Positions 15,492 to 58,917 of a DNA stretch of 64,000 nt are shown piece by piece (the first letter of the stretch is position 1; every line of letters starts with the position of its first letter). This DNA comes from Octopus vulgaris (taxonomy: Eukaryota). A program made the translations under genes and the position numbers. Location of the stretch: assembly GCA_951406725.2 (NCBI GenBank), contig OX597820.1, forward strand, positions 58,280,001 to 58,344,000, given 5' to 3'. The notes beneath the pieces were generated by a model that worked only from the letters and a program-made list of their open reading frames with translations, searched no databases and was not told where the DNA came from.

Positions 15492-18070
15492 ATATATAAG
15501 AGTTTATAAGTATTTATACACAGAGAGGTGACCCTTGTCAGGACGCCTTACATGCTAGAAATGGCAGCCAAACCCAATCCACGAAAAAAAGTAATTCCAA
15601 TGAGAATAAAAGCAAAAATTATTTATAGTCCTAACCAAACTCGAGTTTCTGTATTAATGAACAAATAAATTGATTTGTCATCCGTACTTCGTCAGTGGGA
15701 TCGCTAAGACAATGCTTAATTATGCAGCTAATACGTACCGAAATCACACGTGCTTGCTGCATACTTATAGATTATGTTTTCGAATCAACCGCGCAAGTGC
15801 AGTCACATAGTCAACGGTAGTTAATAAAATTATTTTCTACTCTAGGCACAAGGCCCGAAATTTGGGGGGAGGGGGGAGCAGTCGATTAGATCGACGCCAG
15901 TGCGTAACTGGTACTTAATTTATCGACCTCGAAAGGATGAAAGGCAAAGTCGACCTCGACGGAATTTGAACTCAGAACGCAAAGACAGACGAAATACCTA
16001 TTTCTTCATTACCCACAAGGGGCTAAACACAGAGGGGACAAACAAGGACAGACATAGGTATTAAGTCGATTACATCGACCCCAGTGCGTAACTGGGACTT
16101 AATTTATCGACCTCGAAAGGATGAAAGGCAAAGTCGACCTCGACGGAATTTGAACTCAGAACGTAAAGACAGACGAAATACCTATTTCTTTACTACCCAC
16201 AAGGGGCCAAACACAGAGAGGACAAACAAGGACAGACATAGGTATTAAGTCGATTACATCGACCCCAGTGCGTAACTGGTACTTAATTTATCGACCTCGA
16301 AAGGATGAAAGGCAAAGTTGACCTCGACGGAATTTGAACTCAGAACGTAAAGACAGACGAAATACCGCTAAGCATTTCGCCCGGCGTGCTAACGTTTCTG
16401 CCAGCTCGCCGCCTTAGTAAATAAAATTAAGACTGTACGAAAAAGCTTTGAAACCATGAAAATTTTACTGTGAAAATTATAAGGGTAGAATATTTAGAAA
16501 TATTTTCACACCGGTGGCTAGCATGCGTAATAAAACTCAATAGACAACATATTTTCATATATAAGAGTATATAAATATTTACACACAGAGAGTGGCCCCT
16601 TGACAGGACACCTTACATGCTAGAAAGGGCAGCTAAACACAAACCACGAAAAAAAGGCAATTCCAAAGAGAATGAAAAAAAAATATTTATAGTCCTAACC
16701 AAACTCGAGTTTCTGTATTAATGAACAAATAAACTAATTTGTCATCCGTACTTCGTCAGTGGGATCGCTAAGACAATGCATGATTATGCAGCTAATACGT
16801 ACCGAAATCACACCTGCTTGCTGCATACTTATAGATTATGTTTTCAAATCAACCGCGCAAGTGCAGTCACGTAGTCAGCAGTCAATAATAAAATTAAAAC
16901 TGCGTACCAAAGGGCTTTGAAATTGTGAAAATTTTATACGTGCTTGCTGCATACTTATAGATAATGTTTTCAAATCAACCGCGCAAGTGCAGTCACGTTG
17001 TCAGCAGTCAATAATAAAATTAAAACTGCGTACCAAAGGGCTTTGAAATTGTGAAAATTTTATACGTGCTTGCTGCATACTTATAGATAATGTTTTCAAA
17101 TCAACCGCGCAAGTGCAGTCACGTAGTCAGCAGTCAATAATAAAATTAAAACTGCGTACCAAAGGGCTTTGAAATTGTGAAAATTTTATACGTGCTTGCT
17201 GCATACTTATAGATAATGTTTTCAAATCAACCGCGCAAGTGCAGTCACGTAGTCAGCAGTCAATAATAAAATTAAAACTGCGTACCAAAGGGCTTTGAAA
17301 TTGTGAAAATTTTATACGTGCTTGCTGCATACTTATAGATAATGTTTTCAAATCAACCGCGCAAGTGCAGTCACGTAGTCAGCAGTCAATAATAAAATTA
17401 AAACTGCGTACCAAAGGGCTTTGAAATTGTGAAAATTTTATACGTGCTTGCTGCATACTTATAGATAATGTTTTCAAATCAACCGCGCAAGTGCAGTCAC
17501 GTAGTCAGCAGTCAATAATAAAATTAAAACTGCGTACCAAAGGGCTTTGAAATTGTGAAAATTTTATACGTGCTTGCTGCATACTTATAGATAACGTTCT
17601 CAGATCAACCACACAAGCGCAATCACATAGCCAGCAGTTTTAATTTTATTATTCACTGCTGATTACGTGACTGAACTTGTGCGGTTAATTTGAAAACATA
17701 ATCTATAAGTATGCAGCAAGCACGTGTGATTTCGGTACGAATTAGCTGCATAATTATGCATTGTCTTAGCGATCCCACTGACGAAGTATGGATGACAAAT
17801 TAATTTATTTGTTCATTAATACAGAAACTCGAGTTTGGGGTTAACTATAAATAATTTTTTTTTTCATTCTCTTTGGCATTACTCTTTTTCAAGGTTTGTG
17901 TTTGGCTGCCCTTTCTAGCATGTAAGGTGTCCTGTCAAGGGTCACCTTTATGTGTATAAATATTTATACACTCTTATATATGAAAATACGTTGTCTATTG
18001 AGGTTTATTACGCGTGCTAGACACCGGTATGAATTTTTTCATAAATTTTCTACCATTATAATTGTACACA
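15492..18070. repeat. complex foldback repeat: about 480-bp unit in direct copies, 126-bp tandem array, and an inverted copy
   Basis: Direct copies start near 15492 and 16559; 126-bp units at 16815, 16941, 17067, 17193, 17319, 17445 and partial 17571; 17637-18070 is the reverse complement of about 16469-16900. Confidence 0.9.
15833..16413 (-). mobile_element. trimeric SINE family A with 15-bp TSD
   Basis: Body repeated three times at 184-bp period (gaaaggatgaaagg at 15931, 16115, 16299); flanks tagttaataaaatta (15818-15832) and tagtaaataaaatta (16415-16429). Confidence 0.9.
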
Positions 18071-23195: not shown

Positions 23196-23273
23196 GACTT
23201 TTTTTCCCTACCTAGGTCGAATGATTACTTAAACTTTAAGTAATCATTCGACCTAGGTAGGGAAAAAAAAGTC
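23196..23273. repeat. near-perfect palindrome
   Basis: 23199-23233 is the exact reverse complement of 23235-23269 (35-bp arms, 1-nt loop). Confidence 0.95.
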
Positions 23274-26989: not shown

Positions 26990-29200
26990 TAGTGGCTAAC
27001 AGAGAAGTCCTAAAGAATATTAAGAAGAATGAATATGAATGCATTCTACTTTGAGAAAGGTATGTCCATTACTGCCATAGATGATTAGTTTAATTTCATT
27101 TCAAATATAAAATGTCCACTTAAGTTAAAGACGTGGTAAGATTCCAAAAGAAGTGAGTAAGTTTATTAAAAAATTAGCAAACCAATATTTTCCAAATGAA
27201 TTGATATTTGCCACCCTTCCAAAATTCCAGCAAACTATTTTTGAAAACTAACATAACCAAGAAACTGACAGAAACACTTATAATAGACTTTTATCATAAG
27301 AGATTATTATAAGAAAACAAAACTGTGACATAAAAAAAAACGTATTCAAATATTATAATGATTTTATATACTGATAAAACACTACCTATTCCGTAAACCA
27401 AATGAATATATTAATTGTATAAGCAGAGGCTCTAACAATTCGCTGCAGTTATTAATTATATCACAGGCACTATCAATTGATACATTTCCAATATTTCTTC
27501 AGATAAAAAGTTCGATAAGACCGACTTACACTACAACAATCTGCTGAAGAGATGTGGTTTCGATATGAAAAATTAATTCGACAGTTAATTAGAATTAATT
27601 AGACAGATCAATAGAGATAGCCTTTAGGTTTCATATGGTGCAGCTCAGACAGCATTTGCTAGACAACGACAGCTTAAATAAATATATCAACCAAGTGCTC
27701 AAAAGTAAAGAGAACAGCATACTAAAGAGAGGTAGCGAACTCAACAAAAATTCATTTCCTAGGGGCGTACCATTCTACCCCAGAATTGTTGGACTAACAT
27801 ATGTCACAAAGAGTCACTACAGAAACACTGCATAAAGCACAAAGAGGTTATATTTAGCTGTTTCCAGTATGCTCCAAAGAAATACTAATAGTTCTTTTTT
27901 CTAATTTTGGCACAAGGCCAACAATTTTGAGGAGAAAGGGTTAATCGATACCATCGATCCCAGTACTTTATAATATAGAATCCGAAATGAGAAAAAGTAA
28001 AATTGATTACGGCTGAATTTGACCTTTATAGGCGTAGGAGTGGCTGTGTGGTAAGTAGCTTGCTTACGAGCCACATGTTTCCGGGTTCAGTCCCACTGCG
28101 TGACACATTGGGCAAGTGTCTTCTACTATAGCCTCGGGCCGACCGAAGCCTTGTGAGTGGATTTGGTAGACGGAAACTGAAAGAAGCCCATCGTATATAT
28201 GTATGTATATGTGTATGTGTGTGTGTACGTGTGTGCGTGTATATGTTTGTGTGTCTGTATTTGTCCCCCAACATCGCTTGACAACCGATGCTGGTGTGTT
28301 TACATCCCTGTAACTTAGCAGTTCGGCAAAGGAGACCGATAGAATAAGTACTAGGCTTACAAAGAATAAGTCCTGGGGTCGATTTGCTCGACTAAAAGAA
28401 AGAGCCGGTGCTCCGGCATAGCCGCAGTCAAATGACTGAAACAAGTAAAAGAGCTTACATTATTTCACATCTTAATGATTACACTTCGCAATCCAAGTAC
28501 AAGAGATAGCTTCCAAATCCTAATGTAAAAAATAAAGCGAGAGTAAATCTCTTAAACTTTAAGATCGGCCGACGATGTCAGTTATACCACATTTCTCTGG
28601 AAGATATACGTGAATAGTAGCTGCCCAGAAAATGTCTTGAAGGTACTGCTTTATAAAGCGGTTTAACGTTGTTGCTCAAACAATGCAATACGTCAGTAGT
28701 CGGAAAGACTGCTCTTGGATAAATATCAAGAATATCTTTCCTACAGAATGCATACATGCGATCAAATCAAGGAATATTGGTGGAACATCTCCATCAACAC
28801 ATCTGCAAAATGCAAATATATCAAGCCTGTGCTATATTTATTTGGGACAGAAAAGAAAAATTATGCATTAAATTCAAAAGATATTCTTGACAGTTATACC
28901 AGGACAGTCTTTCCAATAAATAGCATTGTATATTGTTTTTGCAATAACTGCTTTCGAAGGCAGTGCAATCTAGACATTTTGGAAGCAGTTACTGACCACA
29001 TGTATCTTCCACATAATTGATATTTTTGGCACGCAGAGATATCTTTTATATAATAATTCTATTTGAGTTATAACTTTGAGGTTTGCTTTATAAAGCCCGA
29101 CCACCGGTATTGGCTTTCAAATACTACCATTCGACGAAAAAGGATGGCTTTACTGATGATAGAGATGAAAATCTGTAAATATCCGTAAATATTCGATTTA
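26990..29200 (+). pseudogene. decayed Penelope-like element (RT thumb, GIY-YIG and 3' HHR remnant) split by SINEs
   Basis: FYFEKGMSIT, LFRKPNEYINCISRGSN (like yrKPn..Yi..SnHP), *VSYG (like kvSYs), WNISI..TEKKNYALNSK; degenerate tttaCTGATGAt..gtaaa near 29148-29190. Confidence 0.55.
28031..28453 (+). mobile_element. full-length SINE family B
   Basis: ggcgtaggagtggctgtgtggtaagtagcttgc...ccgggttcagtcccactgcg; internal TA/TG tract; ends gactgaaacaagtaaaagag. Confidence 0.9.
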
Positions 29201-29856: not shown

Positions 29857-31828
29857 TCACCTTGATCACCTTGACCGACCAGTCCGTCAGGCGTCCATTT
29901 GACACCGCTGGTCACAGCACGCTGTCCACTCCTCTCTGGATCGCGCCTTTCTCATCCACGTGATCCCAATCGTCCTCCTGAAATCGTAACTCCACCGTCG
30001 TGGAGGTCTTCCGGGTGGTCTTTTCCGCTCACGCGGGTACCACTCGAAAACTGGGTGCGTCCACCGATTATCGGTGAGCCGGGCGACGTGTCCAGCCCAT
30101 CTATACTTGCTGCGTGTATACTCTGCGATGACATCTCTCACGCCGGACTTCTTTCTGATGATCTTGCTACTTATGTGCTCTCTCAACGAGATACCAAGCA
30201 TTGAACTTTCCATGGCTCTTTGAGCCGTTACCAGTCTTTGCTCTTCTCTCTTTGTGGTAGCCCATGTTTCACTACCATATAACATTGCAGGCAGAACTGC
30301 ACTGTTAATGAGGTTGGCGCGGGTGGTCCTGTCCAACCTTCCATTGAGCACATCCCTTATGCCATTGAACGTCTTCCATCCGGCCCTTACTCTCCGTGAG
30401 ATCTCCTTTTTGATATCCCGGCACATATTTACTTCCTGTCCCAAGTAGACATATTCCCTCACCTCCTCTATTTCATCACAGCCGATCACCATTCTACCTG
30501 TTGGTACATTGTCTGACCGCATGAACTTTGTTTTCATGCGGTTCATCTTGAGACCTACTGCAGAACTTTTGATGTCGAGCTCCGTCAGCATAGTCTGAAG
30601 CTGATCCATGTTTTCAGCGATGAGTACGATGTCGTCAGCGAAACGGAGGTGAGTGAGGAGCTCGCCATTGATGTTGACACCACCTTACCGGTCGATGCCT
30701 TTGATGATCTGTTCGAGACATGCAGTGAAAAGTTTTGGGGAGATTGTATCTCCTTGCTTCACTCCCTTCTCGACCGGCACTCGTATGGGTGATGACAGTA
30801 GAGTTATGTCGGTGGTGCATCCGGAATTTGCCTCTCTGAGCAGCTGCGCATATTGCGCTTCGATTCCTTGCCACTGCAGCGAGTTTAGCACTGCGTTGGT
30901 TTCGATGCTATCGAAGGCCTTCTCATAATCTATAAACGCAACGCAAAGAGGCAGCTTGTACTCATTTGCTCGCTCAAGCAGTTGCGTTAGAGTAAATAGA
31001 TGGTCCATTGTGCTGTAGTTCTTCCGGAAGCCTGCTTGTTCCTTCGGTTGTTGTTCGTCGAGACGACGTGACAACCTGTTCAGAATTATCTTCGTGAACA
31101 GCTTGTACACGTGAGACAGCAGGCATATGGGTCGGTAGTTCTTTAGATCTTCTCTGTCGCCCTTCTTATACAGCAGGATGGTATTTGACTCTTTCTACTG
31201 CGAAGGAATTCTTCCCTCGTCTAGATAGTGCGTAAATCGCTCAGCGAGGATTTTCCAGAGCTGCTCTCTGCCTGACTTTAGCATCTCCGATGTTATACCG
31301 TCTTTCCCTGGAGCCTTTCCGTTTTTCATCGAGCCGATGACTCTTTCAACCTCACTGACAAGGATAGGTGGCACGTTTTCTTCCTGTTGGAGTGGTGGTA
31401 ACGGCTGGACATTTCTGGTAGACTTAAAGAGCTTGGTGTAGAAGTCTTCACAAACTTTTTCCATCTCGCTCTTCTCGTTGACCGGTATTCCATCTGTATT
31501 TTTCAGGGCCGTCACCTCCGATCTATATAGTACCATGTCCCTCTTGCATTTCTTGAGGCTCTTCTTTTCCTCTGTGGCCTTCAAGAGCTTCTCCATCCGG
31601 TATGCCTCAAAGTCTTTCTTTAGTTGCTGACGAATCACTCTGCTGAGAATGGAATATTCAAGGTGATCTTCAATAGTCCTCTTCATATTTTTCCTCTTCT
31701 CGAGTAACTTAGTAGTTTCTTCCGAGATTCTTCCCTTCTTTTCTCTTGGGCATACTCCCTTAGCCTTCCTTAAACACTCCTTCAGTTTCCCTATCAGTGA
31801 GTTGTAGTCATCGTCTATGTCGTCTCCT
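29857..31828 (-). mobile_element. young 5'-truncated RTE-clade LINE
   Basis: ORFs 31195-31686, 30685-31110 and 29887-30609 share one frame split by only two stops; KAPGKDGI, NYRPICLL, QAGFR, DYEKAFDS, GVKQGD, LRFADD, YVYLG, YGSETW, WAGHVAR, GRPPRRW; tail ggtgatcaaggtgat into (TA)n. Confidence 0.95.
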
Positions 31829-31859
31829 ATATATGCATGTGTGTAACATATGTTATGTA

Positions 31860-31913
<54 letters not shown>

Positions 31914-31915
<2 letters not shown>

Positions 31916-38064: not shown

Positions 38065-38558
38065 TAAACAGAAAGACGAAATATTTCTAAGCATATCGCC
38101 CGGCGTGCTAACATTTCTGCCAGCTTGCCGCCTTGTTATATATATTTCTTTACTAACCACAAGGAACTAAACACAGAGGGGACAAACAAGGACAGACAAA
38201 CAGATTAAGTCGATTATATCGACCCCAGTGCGTAACTGGTACTTAATTTATCGACCTCGAAATGATGAAAGGCAAAGTCAACCTCGGCAGAATTTGAATT
38301 CAGAATGTAACAACAGATGAAATACCTATTTCTTTACTACCCACAAGGAGCTAAACACAGAGGGGACAAACAACGACAGACAAACAGATTAAGTCGATTA
38401 TATCGACCCCAGTGCGTAACTGATACTTAATTTATCGACCCTGAAAGGATGAAAGGCAAAGTCGTCCTCGGCGGAATTTGAACTCAGAACGTAGCAGCAG
38501 ACGAAATGCGGCTACGCATTTCGCCCGGCGTGCTAACGTTTCTGCCAGCTCGCCGCCT
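38065..38558 (-). mobile_element. multimeric SINE family A
   Basis: Two body+linker units with head at 38500-38558; a second head fragment at about 38070-38132. Confidence 0.85.
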
Positions 38559-52663: not shown

Positions 52664-53799
52664 CACAAGGTTGGACAAAATAATGGAAACACTTCAAAAA
52701 TTTAAAACAAATTTTAATATAGGGTAGGACCGCCTTTGGCAGTAATTACAGCTTGAATTCTACGAGGTATGGACTCGTACAAAGTTTGTTTCCAAAGGAA
52801 TTTTTGTCCATTCTTCAGCTAAAACATTCTCTAGTTCTTGTAGTGATTATGGTGGAGAATATTGACTCCTTGTTTTTCTAAAATATTCAATAATATTGAG
52901 ATCTGTGGACTGTGGTTGCCAGATAAGATGTTCAACTTCACTAAAATGTTCCTTGTGCCATTCAGTAACTACTTCAGTTGTGTGAATTGGTGCATTATCA
53001 TCCTGAAAGATTGCGTTTCAATCCAGAATCAGTTCTGCAAACATAGGATGAATTTGATCAGATAAAATGCTTAAATAGTCTTGACTATTAATTCTGCCAT
53101 GAAGGGAAACAATTGGGCCGGAGGATTTCCAAGATATAGCCACCCCAGATCATCACAGACCCTCCTCCGTGTTTAACAGTTGGAAGAAGGCAGTCTGGGT
53201 CAACTGCTTCTATTGTCTGTATCCACACGTATACTCGGTTGGTGGTCGGAAATACGGTAAAGGATGACTCGTCCGAGAAAATAACATTCTTCCACTGCTC
53301 TAGGGACCAATTCTGTAGGTTTTTACTCCACTCTAAACGCTTTGCAACATTTGTTTTTGAAAGTAGTGCTTTTCTGATTGCAGCCCTCCCGTGAAATCCG
53401 GTTTTGTGCAGCTCCCGGCGAAAAGTTTTTGTGGAAACTGGGTTCTCGAGGTGGTCATTAAGCTCTGCAGTAGTTTTGGGGATTCTGATCCTTTCTAACA
53501 ATTAGTGTATGAGTCCGACGGTCCCTATCTGAAAGTTTGGGCTTTCTTCCGGAGTTTTGTTTCGACGAGGTTTTTTCCTCTTTCTCAAAGGCTGTCATTA
53601 CTTTAGAAACAGCACTTCTTGATACACCAAACATTTTAGCTGTTTTCGTTACGGTAGCGCCTGCCATATGAACACCAACAATTTTACCTCTTTGAAAGTC
53701 CGTTAGATCTGTCATTTTAATGAATTTTAAATATCTTTCTCTGATGATATCAGAAAAGAAACAGCTATCATAGCAAAACATATTAAGCAACACTAATAA

Positions 53800-53830
<31 letters not shown>

Positions 53831-53912
53831 AAACAAGCTTTTGAAGGTTTTATAGATATTTCAAAATTATGATGCTATGATGCTAGGTGTTGCCATTATT
53901 TTGTCCAACCCT

Positions 53913-55394: not shown

Positions 55395-55798
55395 ACATTG
55401 TTAGATTAGGAAAGACGAGCGTTTTGAGACGCAACTAGAAGACTGTATAAGATGCTGGTTGGATGTAGGGATTGGATGTAGGACTGTAATAGGACCAAAT
55501 TGAGACGGTGACTGGTATCAATTGGTGTTGAGCATCGTTAAGCAAACACCATCTTGAAGCGCAGTTAAGAGGCCATCTACTGGATATGGTTGAAAAGGAG
55601 TGGTGAAACCTGGCTGGAGAGGTTATGATCCCGGATCACTAGTCAATCGAAACAGTAGGTGGAGGCCTTACATCAGTGAGGGGAGTCAATGCGCTGTAAG
55701 GCCGTCGAGAGGAAGGCCTCGAAACGGTGCGCATTCTTTCCTGATGGCCCCTGCATCACACTGGCATCTGGTATGCAGAGAAAGCGACTGACTGCACT
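55395..55798 (+). mobile_element. 3' end of an RLE-type non-LTR element (NeSL/Hero-like)
   Basis: LVGCR (like EVGCRG) and EAIYWIWLKR (like aS.WlWlkR), structured 3' UTR, ends in (TA)n. Confidence 0.6.
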
Positions 55799-56050
55799 TT
55801 ATATATATATATATAGTGTAGGTATCAGTTTAATACCTCTAAGGGATAATTAAATCCAAAGTCGCTCCTGGTTATTACCTTGGTAGGTACAGTCTTTTGT
55901 AAGGTTGTACGGAGTAGCAGGTGGTTCTGTTGGTAAACCGTAGTTTAGGTTATATAGGAGAAGAAAATGGATGTAATAACAATGGGAGACTTGTGGTTTT
56001 CGCTGGTATGCCTTTAATTTAATCAAATAGCAAAGAAGGAGGTGAAGGTA

Positions 56051-56101
56051 GCATTTACGATCGTTTCGATTTACTGGTTTAAGTAAATCTCTTCAGAATG
56101 C
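56051..56101 (-). ncRNA. type I hammerhead ribozyme, canonical core
   Basis: Minus: gcauu CUGAAGA GAUUUACU-uaaacc-AGUAAAUC GAAA CGAUCG UA|aaugc; 5-bp helix I, 8-bp helix II, palindromic ACGAUCGU helix III, GUA site. Confidence 0.9.
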
Positions 56102-56339
56102 GAATATAGATAGATGCATCGGTTAGGATGCGAAAATAATTGATACATGTGTGATGGTAATATAAACAAAGGTAATAAGTCTTATATTAAATTTTGTTCT
56201 TGCAGTGGTAAATTCGCTGGGTAGAGGTTTGATTGTGGTCGACTGGTTAGTTTCGTTGGGTAATTAGGACGGAACGAGTATTATTTAGGTGTGGGGTTCC
56301 TAGTTAGATTAAGCACATTTTTTCGCACGTGCCCCACAC

Positions 56340-56475
56340 GGAATTTTGACCCTTTTTATAGTATTATTGAGTGTGTAGTGGTGGGGAGAGATATAAGATA
56401 GTACAAGATAGTACTATCATATATCTCTCCCCACCACTACACACTCAATAATACTATAAAAAGGGTCAAAATTCC
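56340..56475. repeat. near-perfect inverted repeat (65-bp arms, 6-nt loop)
   Basis: 56340-56404 vs 56411-56475, one mismatch. Confidence 0.95.
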
Positions 56476-56718
56476 TGCAAAAACTTAGATCAATTTGAAG
56501 ACTCCACTAGAATGGACGAAAGGGCTATTATATGATATATGATGTATAACAACATGTAACATACTAATAAATATCTGTAAATATAAAACCATCCGGATTT
56601 CTGAGTACCTCATTTCTTCTAATATATAATACCTGTACTTCATCTCCAAACATTCTAATATATATATATAGCCTCGAACCAACCAAAACCTTGTGAATAG
56701 AATTGAAATAAGCCCGTC

Positions 56719-56846: not shown

Positions 56847-57404
56847 GTGTGTGTGTGTGTGTGTGTGTGTGTATTTGTCTACCGCTTTACAACAGGTGAT
56901 GATGTGTTTGCGTTCCCGTATAATAGCCGTTCGTTCGGAAAAAGATCAATAGAGCTAGTACTTTAAAATAAATTAGCACTGGAGTCGATACGTTCGTCTA
57001 ACATTTCAAGGCGGAGACCCAGCATGGCTGCAATTAAAGGACTGAAACAAGTAAAAGACGAAATGAGTGTGTGTGCGTGTGTGTATTTTCTCAACCACAT
57101 GGTTCAAGGTTTAGTCCCAGGTAAACCAAACCCCTGTGAGTGGATTTGATAGACGGAATATGTACGTGTGAGGGAGGGTGCTGCGTGTATGTGCGTGTGT
57201 GTATGTGCACGCGCACGTGTATTTGTCGTTTGTACCTGTTCCCAGCCTATCCGCAATCTTATGACTAACACAAGTGTACGTCCCTTTAACTTAGCCGTTC
57301 GGCAAAAGAATTCAATAAAGTACCAGGTGCCACGCAGTGGGACTGAACCCGGAACCATATGGTCCGTAAGCAAGCTACTTACCACGCAGCCACTCCTACA
57401 CCTA

Positions 57405-58625: not shown

Positions 58626-58917
58626 CTACTTAAGAACAGTGGTCCCGGTGCGCGCACTCGCGTACTCACCCGTCCGCGCTAGCTAGTCATGACTAGTTGA
58701 TCCTTACTTTGTGTTTTTGTTTTATTTACTTTGTATAAAAAATTATTTACCTTGTATTTATGTGTTTTATTTTGTTTAACAGAAATTATTTACCTTGTGT
58801 AAAAAAAATTATTTATTTTGTGTTTTATTTACTTTGCTAGGATCGACTAGTCACGGCTAGCTAGCGCGGATGCGCGAGTACCCGAGTGCGCGCACCGGGA
58901 CCACTGTTCTTAAGTAG
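58626..58917. mobile_element. MITE with about 80-bp TIRs (Kolobok-like if TTAA is the TSD)
   Basis: ctacttaagaacagtggtcccggtgcgcgcactcg... mirrored by ...cgagtgcgcgcaccgggaccactgttcttaagtag; AT-rich core with repeated aattatttaccttgt. Confidence 0.85.

Follow-up and report, generated by a model that had tools for sequence, protein, structure and literature searches.

In the 64-kb window of Octopus vulgaris DNA analysed here (the whole stretch of 64,000 nucleotides), we found an 843-bp segment, 55816-56658, that probably represents the debris of Penelope-like retroelements (PLEs), with the Hydra clade as its most likely source, and that comprises two 5'-truncated 3' ends placed head to head. 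Between 55800 and 56670 the order is (TA)8, a left 3' end, a palindrome, a right 3' end and (TA)6 (Table 1), and by this layout the object is a pair of 3' ends in head-to-head arrangement, 843 bp long. The layout, the palindrome, the ribozyme core, the (TA)n run at each outer end and the dissimilarity of the two halves are directly established, and the single unusual point is that the sequence of the halves differs. The Hydra clade is indicated because a hammerhead and (TA)n occur together. Judged from its letters, the fragment should be called Hydra-like rather than a member of the clade, as the CxxC and CxH sites of Hydra elements were not found and a reverse transcriptase (RT) is absent; the RWK, DKT and CxCX5C motifs of the clade would fall 5' of the truncation point. 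The original prediction of a PLE 3' fragment agrees with published PLE anatomy in its ribozyme, its (TA)n and its joint palindrome; it covered half of the object and omitted the second, opposite segment and the 10-nt duplication at the apex of the palindrome.

Table 1. Features of the head-to-head pair and of its (TA)n borders, in positions of the window
Feature	Position	Strand	Basis
(TA)8 that ends the left minus-strand segment on its 3' side; probable site of priming	55800..55815	.	sequence
235 nt 3' of the ribozyme, putative 3' part of a pseudo-LTR	55816..56050	-	sequence
Type I hammerhead	56051..56101	-	descriptor search, shuffles, folding
145-nt spacer from putative stop to ribozyme, presumptive 3' UTR; G ~8%	56102..56246	-	sequence, composition
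Broken frame resembling a Hydra-type GIY-YIG C-terminus; identity tentative	56247..56339	-	translation, motif score, by-eye comparison
Palindrome left arm (65 bp)	56340..56404	.	hairpin search and fold
Palindrome apex, exact tandem 10-mer duplication	56395..56414	+	sequence
Palindrome right arm (65 bp); in outward direction rich in C and poor in G (6%)	56411..56475	.	hairpin search, composition
Second unique segment, outward to (TA)6; AATAAA at 56566	56476..56658	+	similarity, composition
Decayed hammerhead-like core: UUGAAGA, C, 4-bp stem II, C, GAAA	56495..56527	+	relaxed descriptor
(TA)6, continuous with the TATA inside an older SINE	56659..56670	.	sequence

The core of the left hammerhead is complete, with CUGAAGA, a 5-bp stem I, an 8-bp stem II carrying G10.1-C11.1, and GAA. 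Its stem III, ACGAUCGU, is a perfect 8-nt palindrome, and the cut expected at the GUA site falls at 56056/56055, exactly where it had been placed beforehand. On both strands of the 64 kb it is the sole match to the descriptor, for which shuffled windows gave no strict match in 100 and 0.01 loose matches per window. In Rfam it was listed neither at the gathering score nor among the 30 matches at E<=10; Rfam 15 is thus blind to this complete motif even at E<=10, counts of PLE-type ribozymes based on Rfam will come out too low, and the locus has the practical use of demonstrating a ribozyme type that Rfam leaves undetected. The description of this motif as canonical and intact holds for all core bases, but an extended stem I is missing and the hammerhead fold has a probability of 1.3% in the monomer, the best single-copy fold (-8.6 kcal/mol) being a non-ribozyme structure. 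With two copies the minimum-energy structure is a double hammerhead (-28.2 kcal/mol). On these folding predictions a lone copy is probably nearly inert, and its activity is predicted to be low. A Type I hammerhead on the sense strand of the terminal repeat, as EN+ PLEs possess, is present here, and the full core sets the fragment apart from Naiad elements, which have no canonical hammerhead and carry the RT at the C-terminus.

Downstream of the ribozyme, the roughly 240 bp of untranslated sequence followed by (TA)n that had been proposed come to 235 nt and (TA)8. Upstream, the letters of the proposed GIY-YIG tail peptide are present, in the position and on the strand expected for a PLE tail, but its identity is doubtful, with a stop in the frame and no relative found. 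The frame has its E at 56324, an in-frame TAA at 56306-56304 and the next TAA at 56249-56247. Six Hydra consensus tails were translated by eye and a rule-defined motif derived from them was used for scoring; the peptide reaches 28.6 bits, rank 8 of 127,996 window positions. When the 500 nt that precede the ribozyme are shuffled, this score is attained in 25 of 3000 cases, or in 114 of 3000 without the columns of the palindrome arm (p ~0.008-0.04 by position). A first version of the motif, for which the peptide stood at the top of the window and above all 5000 shuffles, was dropped, as it held residues absent from the six published tails, and two of the residues so added are matched by the peptide. 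Two of the nine residues invariant in Hydra-clade tails are retained, together with the Glu-to-Asn spacing, and by eye 10 of 21 ungapped positions are identical to the best of the six published tails. Hydra tails have a CxxC before the conserved Glu and a CxH after the conserved Asn; in the peptide the CxxC site reads S-V-W-G, no C or H follows the Asn, and the second Glu is missing. Both missing Cys codons are one base away from a Cys codon, so that decay is possible.

Comparison of the read-through peptide with protein collections, covering longer proteins only, gave no candidates, nor did the frame across the left junction or the antisense frame of the right segment. Pfam held nothing for the peptide or for the six frames of either half, and the PDB nothing for the peptide. 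Two matches in a representative protein library were rejected, both being tandem-repeat proteins that score by summed repeats. A motif scan of the window detected no PLE RT remnant, the fragment itself being too short for an RT ORF, and a DNA search of prokaryote genomes and phages returned no relatives, the expected outcome for animal DNA. A GIY-YIG tail is plausible from its position, and its sequence is only suggestive. The idea that the locus links an intact ribozyme to an autonomous PLE family is not supported, because the frame is interrupted by a stop, seven of the nine invariant Hydra residues are lost, seven window positions outscore the peptide and no protein relative was found in the databases searched.

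Given these weak peptide statistics, the left segment might instead be an isolated unit from a non-LTR retrozyme or from another non-coding ribozyme repeat, with a peptide likeness due to chance. Molluscan Type I hammerheads often lie in repeats of 350-390 bp (PMC7229834), and solo retrozyme monomers are described as common (bioRxiv 10.64898/2026.07.22.740005). We nevertheless hold this explanation to be very improbable, as there is no tandem array at the locus where retrozymes form tandem repeats of ~150-450 bp, the left segment is 524 bp long or more, its ribozyme combines a long stem II with a short stem I, as in PLE motifs, instead of following the canonical 6-bp/4-bp build (PMC4209133), and the segment ends in (TA)n as Hydra elements do (PMC8557442).

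The near-perfect 136-bp hairpin at 56340-56475 reported previously was verified: its 65-bp arms pair at 64 of 65 positions with one mismatch, the loop is 6 nt, and pairing ends at both edges. Its folding energy of -111 kcal/mol (z -22) was equalled by none of 200 shuffles, and it has the best score among the 19 hairpins listed for the window, a set that includes 14 simple repeats. Rfam microRNA families matched in this region, but the matches are the hairpin itself, all under the gathering score, and were discarded. If one copy of the 10-mer at the apex is taken out, the remaining 126 bp form a palindrome that has no loop and a single mismatch. By simple arithmetic, the chance that a 6-nt loop repeats the six preceding bases is about 1/4096, so that the apex probably preserves the trace of a strand that turned round and slipped, or of a nick beside the centre that was filled in. 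The arms diverge at 1 of 65 positions (95% interval 0.04-8.6%). As palindrome arms can undergo homogenisation, arm identity need not indicate youth.

We interpret the hairpin as most likely a scar left by snap-back. That it marks a truncation junction, as had been suggested, is right insofar as a palindrome stands at the joint, but it is not simply a 5' edge, since it joins two segments that point outward. It is highly improbable that an independent MITE or fold-back DNA element inserted at the joint and gave rise to the hairpin: other short non-microsatellite palindromes do exist in the window, for example one with perfect 35-bp arms at 23199-23269, but no target-site duplication of 1-15 nt flanks the hairpin, the window holds no second copy of it, the symmetry reaches the very centre with its 10-nt duplication, unlike terminal repeats around a spacer, and the head-to-head joint persists once the hairpin is removed. 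As to which side the snap-back arm came from, our own estimate somewhat favours the right segment, leaves the left cDNA as a less likely donor, and makes a shared or other origin unlikely. The right segment is preferred because the arm, read in the frame of the peptide, contains a stop and has no conserved Trp, and because with 6% G it resembles the untranslated stretch (8%) and not the putative coding stretch (18%). The arm thus probably does not stem from the ORF of the left-hand parent, as far as its sequence indicates; a Tyr within the arm at the conserved -13 position runs counter to ownership by the right segment.

The right segment (183 bp) has no significant similarity to the left one and is probably the 3' end of another PLE. 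Its core has a U at position 3, and a pyrimidine mismatch precedes the 4-bp stem II, a feature common among Hydra ribozymes (PMC8557442); stems I and III are broken and can be restored only with mismatches. A hammerhead-like core arose in 9 of 10000 shuffles of 56411-56658, with a descriptor that was relaxed after the site had been seen, and this relaxed descriptor finds three cores in the window, the intact ribozyme included, compared with 0.86 per shuffled window. Where the right segment looked by eye like terminal motifs of Hydra elements, the stretches were too short to count. The two cores, intact on the left and decayed on the right, lie on opposite strands ~390 bp apart. Both halves show an outward skew of C>G and A>T, and they share only the 65-bp arm. 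Elsewhere, 123 of 500 shuffles score as high as the two halves do, and in an anchored left-versus-right test 154-1620 of 5000 shuffles were as good. The apparent resemblance of the beginnings of the two halves was set aside, being non-significant in two of three scoring schemes and marginal in the third. No parent or second copy of either half was found in the 64-kb window, where nhmmer gave one weak AT-rich match to the right segment.

Both ends of the object lie in (TA)n, (TA)8 on the left and (TA)6 on the right, as insertions of Hydra elements do; (TA)n runs are very common in the window, which makes this feature a weak one by itself. Beyond (TA)6 follows an older SINE, which we take to belong to an octopus family, without its first ~100 nt, and the missing part was not found nearby. 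The left flank, 55398-55799 (+), reads like a decayed LINE 3' end aimed into the same (TA)8; a peptide in it near AIYWIWLKR presumably recalls the tails of HERO-type restriction-like endonucleases, this left-flank peptide had no relevant match in Pfam, and the 3' part holds a stem-loop with a GAAAC motif at ~55690-55737. The flanks do not rejoin as one target, with a LINE-like end on the left and a SINE without its 5' part on the right. Such a mismatch would also result if the fold-back joint were a sequencing or assembly chimera of two loci, and structures of this kind are known to cause assembly trouble (PMC8557442). We regard a chimera as extremely improbable, as just 65 bp are mirrored, the arms differ at one base, and two halves running outward into (TA)n are a known biological layout (PMC3846280).

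The window as a whole has ~37% GC and is dense in microsatellites and SINE-like repeats. Other relics in it are a LINE remnant at 29887-31914 (-), consisting of three open pieces (RVT_1, E 2e-21 and 2e-8) and broken by (TA)n near 31860-31913, and a remnant of a Tc1/mariner-type transposase at 53088-53874 (-), with HTH_Tnp_Tc3_2 at E 3e-11 for 53088-53501. A rearranged SINE at 57070-57404 has forward 3' pieces directly followed by an inverted 5' piece and ends at (TA)21; the inverted piece, 57327-57404, is 91% like the copy at 28029. At 58626-58917, two 79-bp GC-rich repeats, apparently inverted, stand ~135 bp apart and are possibly a MITE or a DNA-transposon relic. The palindrome at 23199-23269 has a 1-nt loop and lies in AT-rich sequence that is unique; neither a ribozyme nor (TA)n adjoins it. 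Tandem arrays at 16815-17638, 15880-16366 and 38143-38507 comprise one of a 126-bp unit (6.5 copies, 98% identical) and two of a 184-bp unit, a dispersed repeat; the hammerhead descriptor has no match in these three arrays.

The pair of 3' ends could have arisen as follows. A PLE RT-endonuclease supplied from elsewhere would have nicked the (TA)n at 55800-55815, and ~525 nt of RNA, the left segment, would have been reverse-transcribed from there before synthesis stopped. The partner DNA end would have lain in an older, oppositely oriented PLE 3' end; it may have snapped back at its tip and copied ~60 nt of itself, with one slip duplicating 10 nt, and would then have been joined to the left cDNA. 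The sequence between the two break points would have been lost, the 5' part of the SINE included. In the parent RNA, cleavage by the ribozyme is predicted to proceed in a dimer formed via the palindromic stem III, or with assistance from protein. The lone copy probably cannot move by itself. The literature offers parallels: PLE insertions have often lost their 5' part and bear an inverted truncated copy at that end (PMC8557442), head-to-head PLE structures with junction palindromes are abundant and were ascribed to self-priming (PMC3846280), pairs of PLE hammerheads on opposite strands 100-700 bp apart have been reported (PMC4209133), and in R2 insertions the cDNA end, or target DNA close by, was directly seen to snap back (PMC11371274).

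The 843-bp unit might also be one copy of a non-autonomous PLE-derived family that is mobile as a whole, in which the peptide was already broken in the parent and the hairpin was a fixed part. A decayed parent would account for the contrast between a perfect ribozyme core with arms of 1/65 divergence and an adjacent peptide that misses seven of nine invariant residues, and non-autonomous PLE derivatives have been argued for (bioRxiv 10.64898/2026.07.22.740005). We think this improbable, given the single copy in 64 kb and the LINE-like left flank and SINE without its first 100 nt on the right, which do not form one target; arm identity, being open to homogenisation, is no firm sign of youth on this count either.

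A further variant of a single insertion would involve two different PLE RNAs, one family being primed on each strand of (TA)n and the cDNAs being joined via snap-back. A dimeric PLE RT-endonuclease cleaves and extends both target strands in vitro (PMC11167929). In the inverted PLE structures described in PMC8557442, the inverted copy is of the same family, and the nested insertion of one Penelope family into another in opposite orientation has been reported (PMC3846280); the statement in the latter source that there is no cross-mobilisation concerns EN+ versus EN- elements. Literature searches of a broader aim yielded no report of two-family head-to-head PLE joints from one event. We consider the two-RNA variant quite improbable, and keep to a left insertion that was joined to an older PLE end.

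Truncated PLE ends with such ribozymes occur by the thousands in animal genomes (PMC4209133). As these ends and inverted palindromic joints are already known, the locus as such matters little. It may serve as a marker of one or two PLE families not included among the Hydra and Naiad elements published so far, and a loop-less palindrome with a 10-nt duplication between unlike halves would be a clean footprint of how a PLE insertion is completed. Should two-family joints recur genome-wide, they would show cross-family co-mobilisation and would record second-strand completion in PLEs.

Several known systems resemble the locus in part. Non-LTR retrozymes (PMC7229834; bioRxiv 10.64898/2026.07.22.740005) likewise carry a Type I hammerhead in low-GC, effectively non-coding repeats, but the locus is non-tandem, longer than typical monomers and equipped with a ribozyme of PLE build. 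The R2 snap-back junctions (PMC11371274) are likewise marked by an inverted copy of cDNA or nearby target DNA, placed where a target-primed insertion meets its 5' flank; R2 is another retroelement class, studied in engineered insertions, and offers a mechanism, not membership. The Penelope elements of Adineta vaga (PMC3846280) have a head-to-head arrangement and a palindrome at the inverted junction as found here; the palindromes quoted there are 18 and 38 bp, compared to 136 bp here, and inserts often have 8-10-bp target duplications.

The left ribozyme agrees with the minimal PLE hammerheads (PMC4209133) in a stem II of 7-8 bp, a 5-bp stem I, G10.1-C11.1, a palindromic stem III and predicted dimer folding, and differs in the absence of the extra unpaired base at A9/stem II and in having a 2-bp stem III with a tetraloop where those motifs have none. 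Among the animal PLE ribozymes of that study, a single motif gave no cleavage and dimers gave only low cleavage, while the anole PLE ribozyme cleaved only with the PLE protein and was dispensable for insertion in vitro (PMC11167929).

Hydra-clade PLEs, with canonical hammerheads and nearly all in (TA)n (PMC8557442), come closest; one of them, Hydra-1_Obim, is from Octopus bimaculoides, and in Octopus vulgaris itself PLEs are numerous and recently active, with 31 families and 336 recent insertions (PMC13282606). By eye, the nucleotide sequence shows no likeness to the 3' end of Hydra-1_Obim, five Naiad consensus sequences from cephalopods have 3' ends unlike either half, and of four short motifs sought in the supplement of PMC8557442 three were unmatched and one occurred, probably by chance, in a record of the Chlamys file. 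Penelope-13_HM carries an inverted 5'-truncated copy (PMC8557442), whereas the inverted partner here is a different sequence and not the same end, and unlike Hydra-clade PLEs the fragment is without RT, CxxC and CxH and has an in-frame stop. In common with Hydra-1_Obim, Hydra-2_Ajap and Penelope-13_HM (PMC8557442), it has a sense-strand Type I hammerhead near the 3' end, and further the (TA)n target, an A/C-rich sense strand and, in the putative tail, an E-to-N spacing of 14. The distance from stop to ribozyme (145 nt) falls within the 45-170 nt counted by hand in four Hydra elements, that from ribozyme to 3' end (235 nt) within the ~30-350 nt counted by hand in Hydra consensus elements, and four published Hydra ribozymes possess, like the left hammerhead, a stem II of G-C plus 7 bp (PMC8557442).
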